From assembly GCA_963788085.1 (NCBI GenBank), contig CAWBFS010000016.1, positions 4,639-68,638 on the forward strand: a stretch of DNA of 64,000 bases, read 5' to 3'. Under the pieces are notes generated by a model. The model saw only the letters and a program-made list of their open reading frames with translations, ran no database searches and was not told the origin of the DNA. The stretch comes from an uncultured Alphaproteobacteria bacterium (GTDB taxonomy: Bacteria > Pseudomonadota > Alphaproteobacteria > ATCC43930 > CGMCC-115725). Positions 2,114-48,722 of this stretch are shown here, in pieces. Positions within the stretch are counted from its first letter, which is position 1; every line of letters begins with the position of its first letter. A program made the translations under genes and the position numbers.

Positions 2114-2126
2114 GCAAGGTGCCTCC

Positions 2127-2151
2127 CTCTCTGCCCCTTAGGGGCGGAGAG
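2127..2151. repeat. GC-rich REP-like hairpin
   Basis: CTCTCTGCCCC-TTA-GGGGCGGAGAG, an 11-bp stem with one mismatch, just after the yghU stop. Same style as the element at 48654-48677. Confidence 0.5.
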
Positions 2152-2177
2152 CGCGCAGACTGTGGTCAAGGCAGTTG

Positions 2178-2567
2178 TCAAAGCCCTCCCCCTCGATGGG
2201 GGAGGGTTGGGAGGGGGTGACACCGCAAGTTTTCGGCGATCGTCGAACGCACGCCTTCGAGGTTCGACAGCACCTCGTTATTCCAGAAGCGTACAACCCG
2301 GTAGCCCTGGGCTTGGAGGAAGCGGGTTCGCTCTGCGTCCTGCGGCGCCGACCCTTGGTGTGGGCCGCCGTCAATTTCGATAATCAGGCGCGCGTCGTGG
2401 CAGACAAAATCGGCAATGTAACGCCCCAGAGGCACTTGCCGGCGGAATCTGTGTCCGTCGATTTGATACAACCGCAAGATCCGCCAGACGCTTTTCTCGG
2501 CGTCAGTCATATCTCGTCGTAAGGATCGGGCACGCTCCCGCGCCCCGGCAATCGGACGCTTCTTCAT
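2178..2567 (-). CDS. DUF559 (Vsr-like, PD-(D/E)XK) endonuclease-domain protein
   Basis: Family-typical sequence RSLRRDMTDAEKSVWRILR...GHRFRRQVPLGRYIADFVCHDARLIIEIDGGPH...RTRFLQAQGYRVVRFWNNEV. I chose the ATG at 2567; the longer ORF to 2768 only reads through repeats. Confidence 0.8.
   Translation of the reverse strand: MKKRPIAGARERARSLRRDMTDAEKSVWRILRLYQIDGHRFRRQVPLGRYIADFVCHDARLIIEIDGGPHQGSAPQDAERTRFLQAQGYRVVRFWNNEVLSNLEGVRSTIAENLRCHPLPTLPHRGGGL
2181..2221. repeat. Left 41-nt inverted repeat flanking DUF559
   Basis: AAGCCCTCCCCCTCGATGGGGGAGGGTTGGGAGGGGGTGAC equals the reverse complement of 2590-2630 at 40/41 positions. It contains its own hairpin CCCTCCCCC-N5-GGGGGAGGG. Confidence 0.9.
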
Positions 2568-2589
2568 TTCGGCATTAGCCTTTCCACTT

Positions 2590-2630
2590 GTCACCCCCTC
2601 CCAGCCCTCCCCCATCGAGGGGGAGGGCTT
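2590..2630. repeat. Right 41-nt inverted repeat flanking DUF559
   Basis: GTCACCCCCTCCCAGCCCTCCCCCATCGAGGGGGAGGGCTT, reverse-complement partner of 2181-2221. It starts 23 nt upstream of the DUF559 ATG. Confidence 0.9.
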
Positions 2631-2637
2631 AACCGCT

Positions 2638-2677
2638 CCCTCCGCCTTGATGGGGGAGGGCTGGGGTGGGGGTGATG
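2638..2677. repeat. Third, degenerate copy of the same repeat (orientation as the left copy)
   Basis: CCCTCCGCCTTGATGGGGGAGGGCTGGGGTGGGGGTGAT, about 31/37 identical to the left copy and head-to-head with 2590-2630. Confidence 0.7.
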
Positions 2678-2754
2678 TGGCGCACGGGTCCTGATCATCG
2701 GGATCTGGGATAACGGCGATTGAAATCATCGGCTCCAGCGCTCTGCGACGGCGG

Positions 2755-5700
2755 TCAGCCGGCAGCATCGAGACCGGCGGGGCTTTCGAGGTTGTCGAGG
2801 AGGGTGCGTGCGGCTTGCAGGTCGGCGGTGTCGAGGCCTTCGGTGAACCAGGCGAGGATCGGGGCGAGCAGGGCGACCGCTTCTTGCGGCCGGCCCTGCT
2901 GTCGGCGCAGGCGGGCGAGGCTCATGGCACCGCGCAATTCCCAGGACTTTGCGTTCTGCCGGCGCGCGACGTCAATGCCCTTCTCGATGGCCGCCTCGAC
3001 CTCGCTCACCGTCCCCGCGCCGGCGAGCAAGGCCTCGCCCCTGAGCCGATAAAGCTCCGCTTCGAGCGGCGCTCCCCCCGCCTTTTCGACCGCCTTCAGC
3101 CCGGCAGCGGCCGATACAAGCGCCGCTTCGGGCTTGCCGATCGCCAATTGCGCATCGGCCTGGAACGCCAACAGCATATGTTGGCAAGACCCAAGACCGT
3201 AGCCGTCCACCCCTTGTCCAATTTGGGCCAGTCCCTTCTCGCTTTCGCCAGAGGCGCCGAGCGCCCATCCGTTCGCGCAAAGGGCGACCGCGTGATACTG
3301 CGCGATGCGGTGCTCCTCGCAGATCCTCAAAGCCCGTCCGGCATAGTCGGCGGCCGCCGACGGCTCGCGGCGAAAGATGTGAACGAACGCAACGAAACAC
3401 AGCGTTTGGGCGAGGGTATACGGGTGCCCGAGCGTCTCGGCGCTTCTGACCGCTGCTCTCAGCTCATCGAGGGACCGATCCAGGTAACCGAGCATCCAGG
3501 AAATTTGCGCCAGGTAGAACTGGCATTGCACGCCGGGGTTAGCACCCGGCCAATCCGGGAATCCCATGTTCAGATCGAACATCTCAAGGCCACGCCGAAA
3601 TTGTGCAAGCGCCAGCTTGAGTTTCCCCTGCCAATACAGCGTCACGCCCACCATCATGTGCGCCCCGACAAGACGGGCCGCATCGTCAAGCCGTTCGGCG
3701 ACAAGCAACGCCTCCTCGGCGAAATGCTGCGCCTTCTCCATTTCGAGTAGGTTCAAATGGTTGAGCTGCAGGCCGCGGAGCGCCGTGAACTCGCGGGAGT
3801 GATCCCCGAGTCTGCCGACAGAGTTCCCATGCCCGCGCATAGGCTCGGCCGATGTCGGGGTGGCGGAGATTCTTGGTCGCGACCAGGGCGGGACCAAGCG
3901 CCATTTGCAAGTCCAGCTCGCGCTCGGCCCGCTCGCGCATATCCGATAGCGCTTCGACCAGCGCCAGGCCTCGGCGAAATTGGTCGATCGCTTCGAGGTT
4001 CGCCGACTTGCTCGCCGCGGCCACGCCGGCTGTGAGCCAGTACGCAATCGCCTGCGCCGGGCAGTTCGCTTCGGTGTAGTGATGCGCCACCAATTCCGGT
4101 TGCGTGCTCGCCACCTCGGGAAAGCGCTCCTCCAGCAGCTTTGCCACCTGCTGGTGATATTGCTGGCGGGTGCGCTTCAGCAGCGATTGGTAGGCCGCAT
4201 CCTGAATCAGCGCATGCTTGAACAGATAGCGCGACCGCGGCGGGCGGCCGCGCTGGTAGAGCAGCTCGTCGACCACCAGCTGGCCGAGACCGCTCTGCAA
4301 CATCTCTTCCTCGATCCCGGCCAAGGCGCTGATCATGTCATAGGCAAACTCGCGTCCCAGCACGGAGCCCAATTGGGCGACTTCGCGCAGCCGCGGCGCC
4401 CGATCGAGCCGCGCCATCAGCAAATCCTGCAATGTCTCCGGGATGTGCAATTGCGCCAGCGCGCCCCTGAGCACGTAGGCCTCGCCGCGGGCCTCGAGCA
4501 CCCCCGAACCGAGGATGGCCTTGGTCAGCTCCTCGACGTAGAGCGGCACGCCGTCGGCCTTGGCGACGATATGATCGACCACCTCGCCGGGCAGCGGCCG
4601 GCCGCCGGAGAGATGACTGACCATCGTCTCGACCTCCGGCCGCTCCAGGCGGTTGAGCGTGATCGGAATCATGTGCGAGCGTTGCGGCCAGGGCGGCGTC
4701 AATTCCGGCCGATAGGTCGCGACGACCAGCATCGCCGCGGTCGGCGCCTGCTCGATCAGCATGCCCAACGTTTCCAATGTCGTCGGATCGGCCCAGTGCA
4801 AATCCTCCCAGGCCATCAGCACCGGGGTGCGCTCGGCCGTTTCGATCAGCCAGGCAACGATCGCATCGAGGGTCGCATCGCGCTGCTGCTGCGCCGTCAT
4901 CTGAAGGCGCGGATAGCGGTCCTCCGGCGCCGGCACAGACATCAAATCGGCGAATAACCTGACACTCTCGGAGCGGGGCAAGGTCTTGAAGCCGGCGAGC
5001 CCGGCTTCGAGCTTCGCCAGGTGCTGCGGTGCGGTATCCTCCGGCTGCCAGCCGAACACGCGCTTCAAATGTTCGATGATCGGATGGAAAGGCGCTCGCC
5101 GTGTGAAACGGCGAGCAGCGGATCGCCACCCAGATGTGGTCCTTGCCGGCCGCCTCCCGCAATCCTTCCACCAGGCGGGACTTGCCGACCCCGGCTTCCC
5201 CCTGGATCAGCACGACCTGGCCGCGGCCGTGGCTACTGCCGTCCCAGGCGCGCAACAGCAGCCCCATCTCCTCCTGGCGCCCGACGAGGGGTGCGCGACT
5301 CCCGGTCCGGGTTGCGGCAAACCGGCTCTCGACATCCCGCGCCGACAGGACGCGCCACGCCGGCACCGGCTCGGCGAACCCCTTGAGCTCATGAGGCCCC
5401 GAGATCCTCGAGGTCGAAGTGATCGCCGAGCATCGCGCGCGTCGCCGCGCTGACGACGATCTGGTTCGGCTGCGCCAATGCCTGCAGACGCGCCGCCAGG
5501 TTCGGCGTCTCGCCGACGACCGCGGTCTCCGATGCCGTTCCTTCGCCGATCTGGTCGCCGACGATCACCGGTCCGGTGGCGATGCCGATCCGCACCGCGA
5601 GCTCGACCCCGGGCGGCCTCGGGACCGCGGCATTCAGCTCCGCCATCGCATCGACGATATCGAGACCCGCCCGCGCCGAACGCTCGGCCTCGTCCTCATG

Positions 5701-6190
5701 GGCGCGCGGGTAGCCGAAATAGACGAGGATGCCGTCGCCCATGTACTTCGCGACAAAGCCGTCGTAATGCCGGATCGCCGCGCTGCACCGGCTCTGAAAC
5801 GACGCGATCACATCGCGCAAATCTTCGGGGTCCATCCCGGTCGAGAGTGCGGTCGACCCCACCAGGTCGCAAAACATCACGGTCAGCTGGCGGCGCTCGG
5901 CCTCCGGCGCCGCGGCGATCGCGGCCGGCGCAGGCGAAACCGGCGGCAGGGCGATCGGCGCGGCAACCGGTGCAAATGCCGGAGGCGGGGCATCGCCGGT
6001 CTCGAAGAGGGCCGCGCCGACGAAGGCAAGCCCTTGTCCGCCCTCGTCGACCGCCAGGCGCTTGACGATCAGCTCGTGGCGGACGTCCTCGAGCGTCTCG
6101 TCGTCGAGCCCGAATTCCTTCTGCAGCCGCCGATAGCTGACCCGCTTCTCCAGGTACAGCAGGCCGACGACGAAGGTCAGGGTCTGCGAG
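2755..6190 (-). pseudogene. Class III adenylate/guanylate cyclase - AAA ATPase - TPR signalling protein, disrupted
   Basis: Four collinear ORF pieces: the cyclase domain (LTVMFCDLVGST...YMGDGILVYFG...VVGETPNLAARLQ), a P-loop (GEAGVGKSRL), an NTPase core and TPR repeats. Single-nt frame changes lie near 5397-5400, 5086 and 3811. No usable start codon precedes the conserved N-terminus HNFSQTL. Confidence 0.8.
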
Positions 6191-6220
6191 AAGTTGTGAT
6201 GGCGCGCACCCGCTCCAATT

Positions 6221-10268: not shown

Positions 10269-11492
10269 GTGGCCCTATCCGTTATCACAGAACCGCTGAA
10301 CCTGCGGACATCGCCCACGGCTCCCGCTGCGGCGCGGCGGCCAAAGCTGCTCTTTCTCGTCACCGAGGATTGGTACTTCTGCTCGCACCGTCTGCCGGTG
10401 GCACGCGCCGCCCGGGCAGCCGGCTTCGACGTCGTGGTCGCAACACGCGTGCGCGCGCATGGCGATCGCATCTGCGACGAAGGTTTCGGCCTACGCCCGA
10501 TCGGATGGCGGCGGCGCGGGGACGGGCTGATTGGCGCCGCGCGGGCAATCTCCGAAATCGCCGGGCTCTATCGCGCCGAGCAGCCCGACCTTGTGCATCA
10601 GATCGCGCTGAAACCGGTGCTGTTCGGCGGTATCGCCCTGCGTCGCGCCTTCCCCTCTCCGGCAAGTGCTCCGGTGGCGATTGATTCGATCATGGGTCTG
10701 GGTTCCCGTTTCTCTGCCGCGAGCTTTGCCGCGAGGTTGCGGCGACCGTCGCTGGGCATCGCGCTGCGCCTCGCGGCACCTAGAGAGCGGGGTTGGGTCA
10801 TTGTGCAGAACCCGGAAGACCGCGACGCGCTGATCACACTCGGGATCGCGCCTCCACAAATCGCCATGATTAGAGGGTCGGGCGTCGACTGTAACCATTT
10901 TCGAGCGCTACCTGATCCGGACGCCAGGACCGTCACAGTTGCCGTCGTCTCGCGTATGCTGCGGGACAAGGGCGTGCTCGACGCTGCCGCCGCAATCCGC
11001 CTGCTCCGACGGCGCGGCCTCGCGGTCGAACTGTTGCTCGCAGGACCGACCGATCCCGACAACCGTGGCTCGTTGACCGTGGAATTACTGGTCTCGCTGA
11101 CTACCGAGCCCGGTATCGAGTGGCTGGGCCCTGTTGCCGATGTCCGCGCCGTGTGGGGCCGGGCGGCGATCGCGGTGCTGCCCTCGACCTATGGCGAAGG
11201 CGTGCCGAAGGCGTTGCTCGAGGCGGCCGCCTGCGCGCGTCCCATTGTCGCCAGCGACGTAGCCGGCTGCCGCGAGATCGTCCGCACCGGCGAGACCGGC
11301 CTCCTGGTGCCGCCACGCGATATCCAGGGACTGGCGGAAGCCATCGCTGCGCTCGCCGGCGATCCGGTACGCCGCAGAGCGATGGGGCGTGCGGGACGCG
11401 CATTGGTCGAGCGCGAGTTTGACGAGGATATCGTCGCGCGGGAGACGCTCGCGGTTTATGCCGCTGCCTTGCGCGAAAAGGCGGTGCGATGA
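10269..11492 (+). CDS. Glycosyltransferase family 4 (GT1 superfamily)
   Basis: C-terminal EGVPKALLEAAACARPIVASDVAGCREIV..GETGLLVPP motif. GTG start; the exact start is uncertain. Confidence 0.75.
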   Translation: MALSVITEPLNLRTSPTAPAAARRPKLLFLVTEDWYFCSHRLPVARAARAAGFDVVVATRVRAHGDRICDEGFGLRPIGWRRRGDGLIGAARAISEIAGLYRAEQPDLVHQIALKPVLFGGIALRRAFPSPASAPVAIDSIMGLGSRFSAASFAARLRRPSLGIALRLAAPRERGWVIVQNPEDRDALITLGIAPPQIAMIRGSGVDCNHFRALPDPDARTVTVAVVSRMLRDKGVLDAAAAIRLLRRRGLAVELLLAGPTDPDNRGSLTVELLVSLTTEPGIEWLGPVADVRAVWGRAAIAVLPSTYGEGVPKALLEAAACARPIVASDVAGCREIVRTGETGLLVPPRDIQGLAEAIAALAGDPVRRRAMGRAGRALVEREFDEDIVARETLAVYAAALREKAVR

Positions 11493-48653: not shown

Positions 48654-48677
48654 CCCCTCCCCGCTGGCGGGAGAGGG
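48654..48677. repeat. GC-rich REP-like imperfect hairpin
   Basis: CCCCTCCCCGC-TG-GCGGGAGAGGG downstream of thyX, same style as 2127-2151. A second weak hairpin (CCTTCCGC...GCGGAAGG) lies at about 48570-48620. Confidence 0.35.
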
Positions 48678-48722
48678 CTAGGGCGGGCATCGCCACCGAG
48701 ACTGGGCGATGACCCAGCGGGG

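Follow-up and report, generated by a model that had tools for sequence, protein, structure and literature searches.

A DUF559 Nuclease Gene Between Inverted BoxC/PIT/TM Repeats and the Recurrence of This Layout Across Bacterial Phyla

Introduction

What connects a small nuclease gene with the two almost identical inverted repeats between which it lies? The question is raised by a 64-kb stretch of contig CAWBFS010000016.1 from an uncultured alphaproteobacterium (hereafter the window, to whose positions all plain coordinates refer), in which a YcjD-type gene of the DUF559 family is boxed in by a pair of hairpin-forming repeats. Comparison with other DUF559 loci places the repeats in the known BoxC/PIT/TM class and reveals the same gene-between-repeats layout, in a constant orientation, in distant bacterial groups. 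A general YcjD-type architecture in which the repeat has the nuclease as its cognate enzyme offers the best explanation of the observations as a whole, and we would put the chances of this reading at about even.

DUF559 is a very large family without an assigned cellular role, and its Escherichia coli K-12 member, YcjD, has kept its y-gene name. First reported in 1992, BoxC/PIT/TM repeats are found in hundreds of genomes, where they mark unstable loci, and they adopt an unusual triplex structure in vitro. An architecture conserved across phyla ties these two unexplained entities together, and both can be tested in E. coli K-12. Were the link functional, a new class of enzyme would join the kind of relationship between domesticated nuclease and repeat that is known from REP/RAYT, and nature would offer a protein able to read a triplex or hairpin in DNA. 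Both partners had been described before, and what appears to be new is their systematic pairing. No paper linking DUF559 or ycjD with BoxC/PIT/TM was found in the open-access literature, in agreement with the original prediction from the letters of the window, which knew of no description of a repeat link for DUF559.

Architecture of the DUF559 Locus

The gene and the repeat copies around it are arranged as follows.

2178..2567, minus strand: DUF559 gene (YcjD family, predicted Vsr-like PD-(D/E)XK nuclease), 129 amino acids plus stop
2181..2222, plus strand: left arm, on the downstream side of the gene, BoxC/PIT-type, tract toward the gene
2589..2630, minus strand: right arm, on the upstream side of the gene, inverted match to the left arm, tract toward the gene
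2638..2677, plus strand: third copy of the element, degenerate, head-to-head with the right arm
2124..2165, plus strand: fourth copy of the element, decayed, hairpin at 2127-2151, directly after the stop codon of the neighboring GST gene

The two arms are 42 nt long, agree at 41 of 42 positions (98%) and leave 366 nt between them; with the intact gene that they enclose they make up a unit of 450 bp. When the 42-mer was searched across the 64 kb with up to three mismatches, the arms were its sole sites, with 0.00 expected from shuffled sequences. Both arms contain the perfect hairpin CCCTCCCCC-N5-GGGGGAGGG, which, with up to two mismatches allowed, is matched four times in the window against an expectation of 0.01. 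In the left arm the hairpin takes the form CCCTCCCCC-TCGAT-GGGGGAGGG and is followed by TT, the mirror purine tract GGGAGGGGG and then TGA. Folded as single-stranded DNA, the left-arm hairpin reaches -12.8 kcal/mol and the right-arm hairpin -14.7 kcal/mol (z = -4.7).

The left arm reaches into the gene and encodes its final 14 codons (CHPLPTLPHRGGGL and the stop), while the right arm stops short of the ATG by 21-22 nt. Beyond the right arm, across a 10-nt spacer, positions 2638-2671 of the third copy are complementary at 88% to 2594-2627, and the hairpin of this copy (2638-2660) carries one mismatch. Right arm and third copy together (95 nt) fold as single-stranded DNA to -44.6 kcal/mol (z = -8.8). 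The original prediction had drawn this same picture of near-identical repeats enclosing the gene, with the left copy supplying about 14 terminal codons, the right copy just upstream of the start, a perfect hairpin in each and a degenerate third copy placed head-to-head, and all of these features are recovered here.

An Rfam scan returned no family at threshold; its sub-threshold matches were confined to long-hairpin microRNA models and arise from the roughly 80-nt inverted repeat. Scanning 2050-2850 for promoters and terminators returned none, and no sigma-70-type promoter is predicted inside the unit. Given the empty terminator scan and the lack of a T-run, the hairpins are not intrinsic terminators.

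The Repeats Belong to the BoxC/PIT/TM Class

The repeat is a member of a class already known under the names BoxC, PIT (potential intrastrand triplex) and TM/TMECO, which combines a C-arm/G-arm hairpin with a mirror purine tract. Like the members of this class, the window arms join a pyrimidine arm through a loop of 3-6 nt to a purine arm, which a second, short loop connects with a triplet-compatible mirror purine arm, here CCCTCCCCC / GGGGGAGGG / GGGAGGGGG. In the left arm, the exact mirror relation of purine arm and tract can be read straight from the sequence, and in the near-identical arm of the related locus L001 all nine of nine triplets are compatible with the purine motif. The original prediction had described the hairpins, which are real, but had not recognized the known family to which they belong and had missed the mirror purine tract.

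The strict TMECO consensus, CCCTCNCCC-N3-6-GGGNGAGGG-N3-GGGNGAGGG, is absent from the window copies. Their second loop has 2 nt and their third block is GGGAGGGGG, so that GGGGGAGGG-TT-GGGAGGGGG stands in place of GGGNGAGGG-N3-GGGNGAGGG, and one of the window arms overlaps the last 14 codons of a gene. Judged by their sequence, the window copies are a variant of the BoxC/PIT/TM class rather than the E. coli subtype.

The mirror relation holds well beyond the window. Of 130 arms, 60 show no departure from the purine-motif triplets (G*G:C, A or T*A:T), and 79 reach a compatibility of 88% or more. Among asymmetric arms, the mirror reading wins in 74 and the direct-repeat reading in 10, and permuting the tracts among elements lowers the score from 0.810 as observed to 0.740+-0.007 (z about 10). 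This mirror co-variation includes A-to-T swaps unique to purine-motif triplets and agrees better with the published triplex than with a G-quadruplex of the four G-runs, which the sequence would also allow.

Published work on the class agrees with this assignment. For the E. coli motif, an intrastrand triplex of the TM class II purine motif was observed in vitro by circular dichroism and nuclear magnetic resonance (PMC4666352). The same survey counts 3610 TM repeats in 262 proteobacterial genomes and 23 in K-12, where five sites are inverted doublets, and describes TM-bearing loci as prone to rearrangement. The repeats around DUF559 genes are likewise dispersed, mostly intergenic and often found as inverted doublets with tracts inward, at loci that are likewise prone to rearrangement. 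The 2015 survey (Holder) found neither a function nor an origin for the repeats, and no associated gene or mobility function, and makes no mention of ycjD, DUF559 or an endonuclease (PMC4666352). Cyanobacteria are among the repeat-rich genomes that it names. Salmonella lacks TMECO. According to its reference list, BoxC was first described in the 1992 paper on the sequencing of envM (Bergler et al. 1992), that is, fabI, the gene that adjoins ycjD in E. coli; ycjD thus neighbors the fabI (envM) copy of BoxC.

A variation on the build was seen in loci from Sphingomonadaceae, Devosia and an uncultured alphaproteobacterial metagenome-assembled genome (L015, L018, L024, L046 and L056), where an extra small GC-rich hairpin, for example GGCGCGCG-TCAG-CGCGCC, stands between the main hairpin and the G-tract in both arms of each locus.

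Conservation of the Layout Across DUF559 Loci

The flanks of DUF559 genes were compared in 80 loci from species-representative genomes, 74 of which are testable on both sides; the flank statistics below refer to this set. The loci come from Alpha-, Beta-, Gamma- and Deltaproteobacteria, Dehalococcoidia/Chloroflexota, Nitrospirota, Marinimicrobia, Dadabacteria and others. C-arm/G-arm hairpins flank both ends of the gene in 62 of the 74 testable loci, and in 41 of the 74 both G- or C-tracts detectably face the gene. The orientation is constant, with tracts pointing inward to the gene and hairpins outward.

The two arms of a locus also resemble each other more than arms of different loci do. When the downstream arm is reverse-complemented, its identity to the upstream arm is 0.79 within loci and 0.68 between loci. 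In 26 of 65 loci an arm finds its best match in its own partner, which ranks among the three best in 39 of the 65. Co-varying inverted repeats beside other DUF559 genes, which the original prediction had proposed to look for, thus do exist. The density of full elements is 1.84 per kb up to 400 nt from a DUF559 gene and 0.081 per kb over the other 1.14 Mb of flanks, an enrichment of about 23-fold near the gene, and dispersed copies best match the arms of their own locus in 27 of 59 cases. The outcome that would have spoken against a link, a generic repeat without enrichment at DUF559 genes and relatives devoid of arms, is not what was found: the family is dispersed but enriched, and related loci keep their arms.

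The downstream hairpin begins about 30 nt past domain residue 114, in a reading frame that differs between loci (PSPxxGEG, LPHRGGG and others) or after the stop codon. Since the frame varies in this way, the conserved feature is the DNA and not the peptide. A tail reading 'HPxPTLPHRGGG' is kept in homologues of just 60-70% identity, and we considered it as a conserved protein motif. This candidate was ruled out, as the hairpin is read in varying frames or lies behind the stop, depending on the locus, and the tail is disordered in the structural model.

Distribution of the Repeat Away From DUF559 Genes

Viewed from the side of the repeat, the relation is strongly asymmetric. An exact-pattern scan of metagenome contigs gave at least 120 stretches, of which 80 were taken as loci holding 90 elements. 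Only about four of the 90 sampled elements adjoin a DUF559 gene or gene fragment, and all four DUF559 genes among these loci have such hairpins beside them. The elements in these loci form 52 groups of singles, 24 gene-less doublets with inward tracts and 6 groups in the opposite arrangement. With so few elements near DUF559, and most of them single or in gene-less doublets, one gene stands against many repeats.

Among composite forms, the commonest is the gene-less doublet, its tracts directed inward and its hairpins outward. Its spacers measure 25-64 nt and are mutually unrelated in sequence, and the doublets of K-12 have the same geometry as those of the metagenome contigs. Gene-less doublets also occur in the flanks of DUF559 loci, where they are sometimes amplified (L017, L077, L033, L072). 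The DUF559 gene, then, occupies the spacer of one doublet.

These counts bear on the simplest alternative, namely that a generic GC-rich REP-like intergenic repeat happens to flank a small gene. About 95% of the sampled elements are not beside DUF559, and in E. coli the repeat is dispersed and intergenic, as such a coincidence would have it. Chance does not account, however, for the 23-fold enrichment, for a position and orientation fixed in 41-62 of 74 loci across phyla, for arms that co-vary within loci, or for a 42-mer pair with 0.00 chance matches expected, and we regard this explanation as effectively refuted.

In the metagenome doublets (L088-L163), an arm with the A-type tract (GGGAGGGGG) tends to pair with a T-type arm (GGGTGGGGG), which parallels the published E. 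coli rule that a type A element is always partnered by type B (Table 1, PMC4666352). Just upstream of the DUF559 gene, tandem duplications were observed at L019 9411-9882, L072 9568-9923 and L033 9574-9808, with units of 135-158 nt that each bear an element or a gene-less doublet. On Dehalococcoidia chromosomes, dense arrays of elements and doublets surround DUF559 (L017 5300-6460; L077 800-4450 and 9200-12340), and 15 oriented copies within 20 kb were counted in L017 and 22 in L077.

The DUF559 Protein

The protein encoded in the window is a clear family member. The Pfam scan assigns it to PF04480 (DUF559; COG2852) with E=1.4e-39 and 134.7 bits against a cut-off of 20.6, covering profile positions 4-108 of 109 and residues about 10-114 of 129; its other Pfam match is a sub-threshold one to MTES_1575. 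It belongs to the same Pfam family as E. coli YcjD, to which it is 44% identical, NGO0050 of Neisseria gonorrhoeae (PDB 3HRL) and Caulobacter VsrA, none of which has been described as linked to a repeat. The match to 3HRL has E=1.6e-23 by sequence and a Foldseek template-modeling score of 0.87.

An AlphaFold2 model with a predicted local distance difference test (pLDDT) score of 78.8 allows for a structural comparison. Residues 123-129 fall below 50, and the tail encoded by the repeat is thus predicted to be disordered. The best Foldseek matches of the model are 3HRL and the homing endonuclease I-Bth0305I. Matches to Vsr itself (1VSR, 1CW0) are weak (E=0.13-0.4, probability 0.44-0.54), and the Pfam scan gave no match to PF03852. 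Across 20 homologues of 65-92% identity, residues D53, E64, D66, H70 and the RFWN motif R93-F-W-N96 are invariant. By alignment and model, the catalytic core is conserved and appears intact, with a predicted Vsr-like alpha/beta fold of the PD-(D/E)XK type. The ratio of nonsynonymous to synonymous substitution rates (dN/dS) is 0.29-0.47 against three close relatives, whose DUF559 proteins are 90-92% identical, which points to purifying yet relaxed selection.

No methyltransferase domain was found in the ORFs (open reading frames) adjoining the gene, nor among its neighbors in L001, L081 and L082. This bears on a second alternative, in which an ordinary Vsr-like repair enzyme has recruited its arms from a generic pool of repeats, and these act on its expression only. 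The arms might do so through a panhandle between the 5' and 3' ends of the mRNA or an RNase III site, through mRNA stabilization, or by a polymerase block that keeps a toxic nuclease low. If the unit is transcribed, its arms would indeed form a panhandle of roughly 45 bp around the ORF (-245 kcal/mol, z = -10), and the missing sigma-70-type promoter inside the unit suits such control. Tight regulation would also be useful, as unbalanced Caulobacter VsrA damages DNA (PMC12907096), and PIT elements stop DNA polymerase in vitro (PMC4666352). On the other hand, work by Maher and co-workers, summarized in PMC4666352, found PIT to be without promoter or terminator activity and without effect on RNA polymerase, and purine-motif triplexes do not form in RNA (PMC4666352). 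Also against this alternative, the window has no methyltransferase gene beside the DUF559 gene. Regulation in cis also leaves unexplained why one gene family and one repeat share the same orientation in at least six phyla, and why gene-less doublets of identical geometry exist. We consider it improbable.

Residence and Rearrangement of the Locus

The original prediction had spoken of a MITE-like (miniature inverted-repeat transposable element) organization. Classical insertion sequences and MITEs share terminal inverted repeats with the unit but differ in that it shows neither target-site duplications nor a transposase domain. Outside the arms no such duplications were detected across the loci, with a direct-duplication score of 3.25 as compared with 3.19+-0.11 in the control, and the unit does not look like a classical MITE. 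The presence or absence of the unit between yghU and the cyclase gene in related strains had also been proposed as a comparison; the closest relatives (L001, L081, L082) all carry it, so that no empty site was found among them.

Three Pseudoxanthomonas species and Luteimonas share the gene order on both sides of the DUF559 locus. In all of these, as well as in the window, L001, L081 and L082, the orientation of the gene relative to its conserved neighbors is constant. A second DUF559 copy within 20 kb was seen in two of the 80 loci only. The gene therefore behaves as a resident, vertically inherited one and not as a jumping element.

The repeats themselves mark the places where the locus has changed. 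Among the window, L001, L081 and L082, synteny breaks exactly where elements end, at 2122-2124 toward the GST gene and within 2611-2630 toward the cyclase gene, in agreement with the published instability of TM loci. On the GST side, synteny with L001 and L081 stops at the outer edge of the fourth copy, whose orthologue in L001 (about 10395-10441) retains the G-tract (GGGGTGAGGTGGGG). On the cyclase side, the window has a segment of its own.

2631..2767, strand unspecified: window-only segment of 137 nt, bearing the third copy, absent from L001 and L081

In its place L001 and L081 have about 24 nt, which belong to the 3' end of their cyclase gene. The segment alters the last cyclase codons, and the indel is placed exactly at the repeat boundary.

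A third alternative has to be weighed here, in which the repeats spread by another route and DUF559 is a selfish, homing cassette that cuts or otherwise uses doublets and is copied into them by repair. Copying of this kind would always leave the gene between inverted arms of the local variant. The common gene-less doublets, with geometry exactly as that of the arms, resemble empty sites, the arms resemble local dispersed copies, and target-site duplications are absent, all of which speaks for a homing cassette. The group I intron-encoded I-Bth0305I (3R3P), a Vsr-like nuclease with an EDxHD motif, is the best functionally characterized structural match (probability 1.0, template-modeling score 0.75-0.77) and is a selfish-element nuclease of the same clan with the same catalytic fold. 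Similar gene-plus-arm units in distant phyla are compatible with horizontal transfer. However, I-Bth0305I shares just 21-22% sequence identity with the DUF559 protein and targets a protein-coding site, whereas the DUF559 gene is a free-standing resident with repeats on its flanks. As a rule, a homing gene abolishes the site that it recognizes, and both arms are intact here. Occupied/empty polymorphism of doublets was not found, second copies nearby are rare, and the locus is syntenic between genera in Xanthomonadales. In E. coli the gene is a single copy at a fixed locus in 3377 genomes and almost never on plasmids. Taken together, these points make a homing passenger unlikely, if somewhat less so than regulation in cis.

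Near-identical inverted arms could also mediate inversion of the gene segment, which would turn the gene on or off relative to an outside promoter. The arms do match at 41 of 42 positions, and a screen for programmed inversion that relied on inverted repeats found the annotation 'DUF559 domain-containing protein' 14-fold enriched among its predicted targets (PMC9881135). Such enrichment is expected from inverted repeats alone, though. Programmed inversion switches further differ from this unit, near which no invertase or recombinase gene was found in the window and whose orientation is the single one described above in all syntenic relatives. An invertible switch is thus very improbable.

ycjD and BoxC in E. 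coli

The K-12 ycjD gene and its BoxC were compared with 5426 complete E. coli genomes, and copy counts were taken from 59 evenly spread records. The gene is present as a single copy at the fabI-sapF locus in 3377 of the 5426 genomes and essentially never on plasmids. BoxC places number 17-33 in records with ycjD (median 22, n=37), as opposed to 2-20 in records without it (median 8.5, n=22). Individual strains illustrate the spread, with 2 places in the ST131 strain JJ1886 and 14-15 in O157:H7 strains; in the literature, TMECO counts are 29 for strain 55989 and 1 for IHE3034 (Holder et al., PMC4666352). The trend of co-occurrence fits the proposed pairing of nuclease and repeat.

The fabI-sapF site is itself variable, with ycjD in phylogroups A, B1 and C and eefRABCD in the other groups (PMC12817139). 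Where ycjD is missing, the homology that extends from the fabI side stops about 40 nt short of BoxC; since it ends before the repeat, BoxC and ycjD have been gained or lost as one block. At the stop codon of the K-12 gene lies a decayed element, and a perfect one follows about 170 nt further downstream.

In a strain with eef, one E. coli match (H38) was considered as a ycjD remnant and rejected, being a BoxC doublet between barA and gudD. In strain ETEC6 (H61, NZ_CP041627.1:1404428-1406505), ycjD is cut by IS1 into two annotated DUF559 fragments. Upstream of ycjD in K-12 (L083, NC_000913.3:1347000-1353000), within 4195-4420, lies a perfect 17-nt palindrome, TCACCTCATTCTGACAA, which is unrelated to the repeat and overlaps the start codon. 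The element at L083 4204-4242 and arms of L046, L047, L053 and L067 have an imperfect stem, CTCGCCCC / GGGGAGAG, with a G.A mismatch if the hairpin is extruded. This is the commonest BoxC type of K-12 ('A mm') and also occurs in arms from Devosia, Desulfobacterota and Ferrovibrio. A conserved mismatch beside genes that resemble mismatch nucleases may be meaningful.

A Possible Partnership of Nuclease and Repeat

The closest known parallel is the REP/REPIN-RAYT system, which the original prediction had invoked. In both cases a single-copy, vertically inherited gene lies between inverted short palindromic repeats, the repeat is dispersed in many copies and often forms inverted doublets, resident gene and repeat variant go together, and target-site duplications are absent. 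The likeness in architecture therefore holds and extends to other genomes. Membership does not: the DUF559 protein is a predicted Vsr-like PD-(D/E)XK nuclease, whereas RAYT is an HUH/Y1 tyrosine transposase, and the DUF559-linked repeat has an additional mirror tract that makes it triplex-capable. Furthermore, TnpA-REP cleaves and rejoins REP DNA in vitro, whereas an action of the DUF559 protein on its repeat is a proposal.

More specifically, YcjD-type DUF559 proteins might be the missing cognate enzymes of BoxC/PIT/TM repeats, forming a second, independently evolved partnership of the REP-RAYT kind around a structure-recognizing nicking nuclease. We hold this specific form tentatively, at somewhat below even chances. 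The nuclease would nick the arm after recognizing its folded hairpin/triplex form, probably in single-stranded or supercoiled DNA. Repair triggered by the nick, template switching or recombination could then maintain, copy or rearrange doublets. Binding and nicking of the repeat, as well as the route by which it spreads, are what we infer from the layout. Nick-induced repair would account for the rearrangement hot spots at element loci, and the proposed partnership for both the spread of the repeat and the genome instability at repeat loci.

Several points weigh against this proposal. To our knowledge, PD-(D/E)XK nucleases are unable to rejoin DNA, and the DUF559 protein would therefore not be a self-sufficient transposase. 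At L017 the dispersed copies are of another sequence variant than the arms of the gene. K-12 ycjD has a decayed downstream arm and no BoxC upstream. The co-occurrence of ycjD and BoxC is confounded by phylogroup, some genomes without ycjD hold 19-20 BoxC places, and every E. coli genome retains at least one copy. Finally, the sole DUF559 protein studied by experiment, Caulobacter VsrA, was read as a T:G mismatch repair nuclease that works with a solitary cytosine methyltransferase and not with repeats (PMC12907096).

Neighboring Genes and Other Elements in the Window

The genes on either side of the unit and the one more distant element are listed below.

1235-2113: GST/YghU-like gene, left neighbor of the unit
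2755-6193, minus strand: broken cyclase/AAA/TPR gene (adenylate/guanylate cyclase-AAA_16-TPR), right neighbor of the unit
48654..48692, plus strand: solitary degenerate BoxC/PIT-like element, CCCCTCCCCGCTGGCGGGAGAGGG-CTA-GGGCGGGC

The neighbors agree with those named in the original prediction, yghU and a dead cyclase gene. The latter falls apart into three or more ORFs that overlap one another (2755-4047, 3686-5068 and 4338-5366). Its orthologue in L001 is a single intact ORF of 1055 amino acids with 89% nucleotide identity, and in L081 it is called as two genes; the broken gene is either a pseudogene or the product of sequencing frameshifts. Apart from the copies around the DUF559 gene, the element at 48654..48692 is the sole further candidate copy in the window. 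Upstream of the GST gene, 175-1110 encodes a 311-amino-acid DUF7700 protein (PF24777, E=1.5e-63) with two repeats, which is unrelated to the finding.

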